A DNA stretch of 64,000 nucleotides from Escherichia coli (GTDB taxonomy: Bacteria > Pseudomonadota > Gammaproteobacteria > Enterobacterales > Enterobacteriaceae): NCBI RefSeq assembly GCF_024502345.1, contig NZ_JALDNN010000001.1, one strand, 5' to 3'. Positions 61,565 to 61,607 of the stretch are shown in pieces. Each line of letters begins with the position of its first letter. Position 1 is the stretch's first letter. The notes beneath the pieces were generated by a model that had not been told where the DNA came from, did no database searches, and was given only the letters and a program-made list of their open reading frames with translations. A program made the translations under genes and the position numbers.

Positions 61565-61607
61565 CAGCCCCTTTTCAGACGACATAGTCAATGCCGAAAA
61601 AGGGGCT
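61565..61607 (-). terminator. Putative tehAB terminator hairpin
   Basis: 10-bp stem agcccctttt/aaaaggggct; on the minus strand it is followed by a TTTATTTT stretch. Confidence 0.45.

Follow-up and report, generated by a model that had tools for sequence, protein, structure and literature searches.

Gene order and an inverted repeat between tehB and ydcL

The window, a 64,000-nucleotide stretch of Escherichia coli DNA, carries tehA, tehB and ydcL on its minus strand, with ydcL convergent to the plus-strand gene ydcO and 34 nt between the two (60765-60798). In K-12, ydcL and ydcO are separated by an IS200/IS605-family tnpA pseudogene and insQ (TnpB family), both of which are absent from the window. 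The spacer between tehB and ydcL bears no RefSeq feature in the matching genomes, whose RefSeq records do name the flanking genes. The features of the locus, with genes and spacer placed according to the gene listing, are as follows.

tehA: 63460..62360 as listed, minus strand
tehB: 62363..61770, minus strand, with its stop codon at 61770-61772
tehB-ydcL spacer: 61769..61468, minus strand, 302 nt
ydcL: 61467..60799, minus strand
ydcO: 59469..60764, plus strand
tehB 3' UTR: 61610..61769, minus strand, 160 nt from the stop codon to the hairpin, from alignments
Perfect DNA arms: agcccctttt at 61566-61575 and aaaaggggct at 61598-61607, in plus-strand letters, 22 nt apart
RNA hairpin: 61564..61609, minus strand, 19 bp in all, with the 5-nt loop UGACU

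A preliminary description of the spacer had placed a hairpin about 160 nt past tehB, and by our measurement it lies 162 nt after the stop codon. The inverted repeat with perfect 10-bp arms is likewise real, with a start coordinate that was 1 nt off. The distance between the arms, put at about 21 nt, is 22 nt in the DNA, and it had been taken for an unusually large loop. That premise does not hold for the minus-strand RNA, in which the spacer between the arms pairs internally to give six extra pairs and a 3-nt bulge, leaving a loop of 5 nt. The RNA hairpin is thus built from a 13-bp lower stem (core GCCCCUUUU/AAAAGGGGC), the 3-nt bulge UCU and a 6-bp upper stem. Its stem holds five consecutive G-C pairs, and so has the G+C-rich stem-loop that characterizes intrinsic terminators.

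A folding-energy calculation had been suggested as a check, and it gave a minus-strand fold far stronger than that of shuffled sequence. In a 71-nt context the minus-strand RNA folds at -26.3 kcal/mol, compared with -11.7 +/- 2.3 kcal/mol for 200 dinucleotide shuffles, none of which folded as well (0/200; z = -6.3). The hairpin alone reaches -24.4 kcal/mol, and the same structure is printed in the supplement of the TRS study at -25.4 kcal/mol (PMC10687069). The plus-strand RNA of the palindrome folds more weakly (-18.8 kcal/mol, z = -3.4) because three G-U pairs exist in the minus sense only. Counting perfect inverted repeats across the window (arms of at least 10 nt, spacers of 3-30 nt), we found 12 places against 1.46 +/- 1.15 in 200 first-order Markov simulations, so that one such repeat arising by chance is unlikely, though possible. 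That the tehB-ydcL hairpin is not a chance repeat is settled by its conservation and by the RNA 3' ends mapped to it.

Conservation within Escherichia

Of 5426 complete E. coli genomes, 5412 contain the 302-nt spacer at one place each (copy number per genome: median 1, maximum 2), and 5406 contain the 80 nt around the hairpin as a single copy with at least 95% identity. This distribution, one place per genome in 5406 genomes, led us to reject a REP/BIME, an ERIC or another dispersed repeat or mobile element as the identity of the palindrome.

Across an alignment of eight distinct variants, taken from E. coli lineages, Escherichia sp. isolates and E. albertii, 90.7% of pair cells are paired. 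Pairing is kept through a U to C change accompanied by A to G in Escherichia sp. MOD1-EC7003 (L002), through replacement of a G-U by an A-U pair in variant L085, and through a C to U change that gives G-U in variant L005. Covariation is weak: two pairs show changes in both partners, and the observed score is reached by 39 of 500 shuffles, in a set of eight variants that is too small and too similar for decisive covariation statistics; conservation is therefore mostly plain sequence identity.

The clinical isolate E. coli 22AR0750 (L086; 198-535) has 36 extra nt inside the hairpin, at the equivalent of window ~61580-61605. The insert consists of repeats of CCCTTTTTCGGCA and CGGCATTGACTATGTC (5' arm, loop) and duplicates the region of the candidate -10 element described below.

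Mapping of RNA 3' ends to the hairpin foot

The hairpin sequence in the window is identical to that of K-12 MG1655, and published K-12 data place RNA 3' ends just past its stem, by 1-7 nt.

RNA 3' termini: 61556..61565 (K-12 1502359-1502368), minus strand, from TRS Supplementary Data 2 (two sheets) and Data 3
Tail after the stem: 61551..61565, minus strand, GAAAAAUUUAUUUUC, with A5 directly after the stem and then an interrupted U-run

The TRS study reports an RNA 3' terminus at 1502359-1502368 on the plus strand of NC_000913.3, and the upstream sequence and structure given for it in Data 3 are exactly those of the tehB-ydcL hairpin (PMC10687069). The dominant ends lie at 1502361 in Data 3 and at 1502363 and 1502365 in the sheets of Supplementary Data 2, with a signal, defined as 1 minus the local read-through over the next 67 nt, of 0.81-0.94 and adjusted p values of 1e-4 to 4e-28 (PMC10687069). 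Sheet one comes from RNAtag-seq of MG1655 in LB, and sheet two is presumed, from the order of the contents, to be re-analysed Dar & Sorek Term-seq (PMC10687069). On the window these dominant ends correspond to 61563, 61561 and 61559. The ends as a whole fall 1-10 nt after GGGGCU, and the dominant ones at +3, +5 and +7. The TRS tables list this end whereas the Term-seq tables of Adams et al. list no 3' end between K-12 1502100 and 1502499, and detection therefore depends on the data set. Mapping transcript 3' ends had been the second check suggested in the preliminary description, and the published maps supply a reproducible K-12 terminus at the hairpin foot on the tehB strand.

SMRT-Cappable-seq describes tehAB (b1429|b1430) as an operon of its own and lists no tehAB-ydcL read-through transcript (PMC6131387). 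The hairpin is downstream of tehB on the same strand and the tehAB unit stops before ydcL, as for an element at the end of a transcription unit. We consider that the hairpin is probably the 3'-end-forming element, a terminator or insulator, for minus-strand transcripts coming from tehAB. The terminator reading first offered for the hairpin gains support from the K-12 3' terminus at the hairpin foot, from the separate tehAB operon and from equivalent hairpins in related loci. RNA polymerase leaving tehB would cross the 160-nt 3' UTR and transcribe the palindrome, whereupon the RNA would fold into the 19-bp hairpin and transcripts would end just past its foot, ~95 nt before the ydcL start. If tehAB transcripts end there, it follows that ydcL is expressed from its own promoters and not by read-through. 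A spacer promoter absent from the maps, for example near the CRP-like site described below, could contribute to the RNAs that end at the hairpin.

A hairpin at a fixed distance from ydcL across Enterobacteriaceae

A YdcL-based scan gave 80 loci, 45 with tehB upstream and 35 with another co-oriented gene in its place. A hairpin ~100 nt before the ydcL ATG was present in about 70 other Enterobacteriaceae loci, with any upstream gene. Where tehB precedes (n=45), the strongest hairpin of the spacer usually ends 95-105 nt before the ATG, and the hairpin sequences are unrelated between genera despite their equal position. Most of the 35 loci without tehB, which come from Enterobacter, Lelliottia, Leclercia and some Klebsiella and Raoultella, have a canonical terminator of hairpin and U-run at about the same distance from ydcL. 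Since the position is fixed whatever gene precedes, this slot is that of the terminator of the gene upstream of ydcL.

Among the tehB-preceded loci, the spacer measures ~300 nt in Escherichia versus ~155 nt in Citrobacter and Salmonella, and what lengthens the Escherichia spacer is a segment of ~128 nt lying past the tehB stop and ahead of the hairpin. In Citrobacter and Salmonella this segment is absent and the hairpin follows ~20 nt after tehB. The ~128-nt segment (window 61642-61769, minus strand) is Escherichia-specific, being found in E. coli, Escherichia sp. isolates and E. albertii, and a search for a second copy elsewhere in E. coli genomes found none. Isolate MOD1-EC7003, whose TehB and YdcL are 97-98% identical to those of E. 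coli, is also without the segment. Its hairpin, the sole one there, follows the tehB stop by 35 nt, and its short spacer looks like a secondary deletion.

Mode of 3' end formation at a non-canonical tail

Intrinsic terminators have a tract of about 6-8 U directly after the stem, and the tehB-ydcL hairpin has none. The T-rich stretch noted earlier downstream of the repeat is present in the form of U-runs (UUUAUUUUC...UUUUUUU), with the correction that it begins only after G-A5; the next U7 lies farther downstream, at 61536-61542 on the minus strand. The tail obtains a d'Aubenton-Carafa-type T-tail score of 0.18-0.49, compared with 2.3-5.3 for canonical tails, and a consensus terminator scan makes no call at the hairpin. 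With no U-tract next to the stem, efficient intrinsic termination would therefore not be expected from sequence alone, and by sequence rules the hairpin falls outside the class of textbook intrinsic terminators, as its tail is not a canonical U-tract.

The likeness to Rho-independent terminators of E. coli is nonetheless broad. As in these, a stable stem-loop with a G+C-rich lower stem core forms in the sense RNA past the last gene of an operon, 3' ends fall a few nt after the stem, the next co-oriented gene is insulated, and canonical terminators occupy the equal position in related genera. It differs from them in having A5 instead of a U-tract, in an unusually long stem (19 bp with a bulge), in the distance of 162 nt from the stop codon, compared with about 20-40 nt, and in that its Rho-independence is putative. 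We tentatively favour intrinsic-type termination with a poor tail, at the hairpin or immediately past it, as the way in which these ends arise.

A close second, possible if somewhat doubtful, is that the hairpin instead protects an end made farther downstream, by Rho, at the U-rich run or by RNase E in the single-stranded, AU-rich tail, with 3' exonucleases trimming back to the stem and the hairpin stabilizing the tehAB mRNA. Such a role would suit a tail without a proximal U-tract, and the 3' ends are spread over several nt very near the stem, as trimmed ends would be. RNase E reportedly prefers to cut two nucleotides before a U, a preference that the tail fits with GAAAA|AUUU. Protective 3' stem-loops of processed or Rho-terminated mRNAs, known from Term-seq (Dar & Sorek 2018, PMC6061677), are, like this one, strong, without a U-tail and marked by heterogeneous ends at the foot, but the tehB-ydcL hairpin differs in having no rut-like C-rich region upstream. 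Within the 160-nt 3' UTR, every 78-nt window has a C/G ratio in the range 0.56-1.06 and there is no C-rich, G-poor stretch, which speaks against an end made by Rho and led us to reject a Rho-utilisation site in this region. The dominant end in the presumed Term-seq data, 1502365, lies 7 nt after GGGGCU, a normal distance for intrinsic termination, and the canonical intrinsic terminators at the equal position in related genera also argue against a purely protective hairpin. The 3' ends themselves fit termination followed by nibbling, and trimming, equally well.

Two further arrangements were considered and rejected. A bidirectional terminator is contradicted by the plus strand, where the hairpin is followed by AAGUCAAUC, without a U-run. 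For 61685-61785, where another hairpin close behind tehB might have been the true terminator, the fold is no better than that of shuffles (minus strand, z = -0.5; plus strand, z = -0.2).

Mapped ydcL start sites and a candidate promoter overlapping the hairpin

Two start sites of ydcL are mapped in the spacer, one of them within the palindrome.

Distal ydcL start site (P2): 61577 (K-12 1502347), minus strand, from SMRT-Cappable-seq (PMC6131387, supplementary file 4)
Candidate -35 element of P2: 61609..61614, minus strand, TTGACT, abutting the 5' arm and invariant in 8/8 Escherichia variants
Candidate -10 element of P2: 61584..61589, minus strand, GACTAT, spanning the loop and the uppermost part of the 3' arm, ending 7 nt before the start site
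Proximal ydcL start site (P1): 61496 (K-12 1502428), minus strand, from SMRT-Cappable-seq (PMC6131387)
Extended -10 element of P1: 61503..61511, minus strand, TGCTATAAC, conserved in all genera compared

Transcripts of b1431 and of b1431|b1432 start at 1502347 (PMC6131387), a position inside the hairpin, in the bulge that caps the lower 3' arm. From this start site, in one data set, we infer that TTGACT and GACTAT are the elements of the P2 promoter; their spacing of 19 nt is suboptimal. Two copies of ATTGACT, 25 nt apart, are invariant, as is the loop, while several stem positions vary. Judged from the alignment, the invariance of the loop and 5' flank appears to go beyond what a plain terminator loop would require, and an embedded P2 promoter would explain it. 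An RNA starting at 61577 carries the 3' arm only and is therefore unable to form the hairpin. The distal promoter would thus share the DNA of the operon end, with its -35 element at the 5' foot, its -10 element in the loop and its start in the 3' arm, and P2 transcripts, holding half of the palindrome only, would escape and run on into ydcL. This resembles known overlapping terminator-promoter arrangements, in which one DNA segment ends upstream and starts downstream transcripts and in which transcripts that start within the palindrome, without the 5' arm, escape termination; it differs in that the hexamers here are deduced from one start-site data set.

Were the palindrome to act solely as DNA, either as promoter architecture or by binding a dimeric protein that controls ydcL, the RNA hairpin would be a by-product. 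The two copies of ATTGACT, as invariant as the loop, and the start site within the palindrome would agree with such a role, as would the RpoS-holoenzyme SELEX peak in the tehB>ydcL spacer (PMC5493296). It would leave unexplained, however, the RNA 3' ends at the stem foot, the pairing kept through wobble and compensatory changes, the G-U pairs specific to one strand, and the unrelated hairpin sequences at the equal position in other genera, and we regard it as highly improbable. We know of no regulator that fits arms 22 bp apart.

The TRS study labels the 3' end at the hairpin "5' UTR, ydcL" (PMC10687069), which would make the hairpin an attenuator in the 5' leader of ydcL, tuning expression by premature termination. 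An attenuator would also suit the constant spacing of ~100 nt between hairpin and ydcL ATG that many genera share. The label, however, follows from the rule that an end at most 100 nt upstream of a start codon is assigned to the 5' UTR if the UTR is not known (PMC10687069), and the mapped end lies 92-98 nt upstream of the ydcL start codon. Since transcription of ydcL begins past the 5' arm at both mapped sites (1502347, 1502428), ydcL transcripts are unable to form the hairpin. The equivalent hairpin of other genera is clearly the terminator of the upstream gene, and we found neither a conserved anti-terminator pairing nor a conserved leader peptide. Attenuation of ydcL is accordingly extremely improbable. 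A 39-codon open reading frame across the hairpin (61618..61499) was rejected, as its start codon or frame is lost in 3 of 11 sequences (the ATG in L004 and L006; frameshifts in O157:H7, L004 and L006).

The proximal start lies 7 nt after TATAAC within TGCTATAAC. An RpoS-holoenzyme SELEX peak has been reported in the tehB>ydcL spacer (PMC5493296), and the extended -10 element of P1 fits it. Around this promoter, a block at window 61496-61545 on the minus strand is conserved across genera (TTTTTGYCACAAMA ... TTTGCTATAAC); the TTTGCTATAAC part is the extended -10 element and has C at -13, and GYCACAACA, in the part upstream of it, could serve as a site for a regulator. The A5-T3-A-T4 tail of the hairpin resembles the UP-element consensus AAAWWTWTTTT and is located at -69 to -55 from the P1 start, one helical turn farther upstream than is usual for an UP element. 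Citrobacter hairpins are likewise trailed by A-rich sequence (AGAAAAAATTGTG). Promoter function, and not termination, may be what constrains the tail.

A CRP-like site in the tehB 3' UTR and a hypothetical small RNA

Upstream of the hairpin by 57 nt lies a perfect, palindromic CRP-type core, TGTGAaattaaTCACA (61666-61681). It is the sole TGTGA-N6-TCACA site in the 64-kb window, where 0.07 would be expected, and is kept in all long-form Escherichia spacers while its flanks diverge. Its distance from the mapped ydcL starts (~-95 for P2) is a standard one in neither case. A literature search found no published support for CRP at tehB and nothing relevant on a tehAB terminator. On the plus strand, a promoter-like TTCACA-16-TATGCT overlaps the CRP-like site.

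The spacer could conceivably yield a discrete regulatory sRNA that ends at the hairpin, made from a spacer promoter (e.g. a CRP-dependent one) or by processing of the tehB 3' UTR. The conserved CRP core would offer such a promoter, the 3' end is robust though tehAB is not known as highly expressed, and conservation is higher around the hairpin than in the spacer's first 130 nt. SMRT-Cappable-seq, a method that under-samples short RNAs, shows no start site between tehB and the hairpin (PMC6131387), and by eye there is no good -10 element at a standard distance from the CRP-like site. MOD1-EC7003 keeps the hairpin without the CRP-like site and the upstream spacer, and the tail is without the U-run that Hfq needs.

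Searches for known RNAs point the same way. An Rfam scan of 61300-61900 (E <= 10) returned chance matches only, to eukaryotic snoRNA and miRNA models, with a best E of at least 0.14, scores far below gathering thresholds and no match to a cis-regulatory family. The RIL-seq sRNA-prediction tables of Bar et al. 2021 include no node for the tehB 3' UTR or the tehB.ydcL spacer; the tehB and ydcL coding sequences alone are present, with scores of 2-6e-4. We therefore consider an sRNA very unlikely. A regulatory RNA or sRNA 3' end had been the fallback reading of the preliminary description, and it is left without support by the loss of the large-loop premise, the empty Rfam scan, the missing RIL-seq node and the position of both ydcL starts downstream of the 5' arm. 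Unlikely, too, is that the palindrome works as a dual-use switch, in which traffic from tehAB, or from a cAMP-CRP-controlled start at the CRP-like palindrome, would directly gate P2 through occlusion or polymerase hand-over, or in which the stable 3' fragment would be a trans-acting RNA derived from the tehB 3' UTR.

The plus strand of the spacer has motifs of its own. Antisense to the tehB stop, around 61700-61790, are a promoter-like site (61676-61703) and a terminator-like hairpin (61734-61752) with a T-run, followed by CATTTTTTAC at ~61771-61780; the plus-strand antisense fold is no better than shuffles. For Shigella flexneri 2a 301, an sRNA of 297 nt, Ssr15, was predicted in the SF1779(ydcL)/tehB spacer on the strength of promoter and terminator motifs, and it carries no mark of RT-PCR validation (PMC4782007). 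The plus-strand promoter and terminator motifs of the window match this prediction. Ssr15 comes from the equal intergenic region, but it is on the opposite strand and spans the whole spacer (PMC4782007); the tehB-sense hairpin is not concerned.

Annotation of the locus and neighbouring structures

The hairpin is an ordinary operon-end element with a non-canonical tail and an overlapping promoter, one without RefSeq annotation yet already visible in published high-throughput tables. The tehAB operon gains a defined 3' end ~205 nt after tehB, and what the TRS tables class as a premature terminus in the ydcL 5' UTR makes better sense as the end of tehAB. E. coli thereby has one more hairpin-linked 3' end that is without a proximal U-tract and overlaps a promoter. 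Terminator predictors would miss such a case, which makes it useful for their training and benchmarking; its significance beyond annotation is small.

Two other structures flank the genes discussed here. The primary 3' end of ydcL in K-12 maps to a GCGCCAUC...GAUGGCGC hairpin with a U-run (TRS tables, PMC10687069). At window 59535-59582, near the start of the listed ydcO reading frame and in the sutR(ydcN)-ydcO divergent region, a perfect 10-bp inverted repeat with a 28-nt spacer (GTGCGTTATA...TATAACGCAC) may be an operator or a leader structure.
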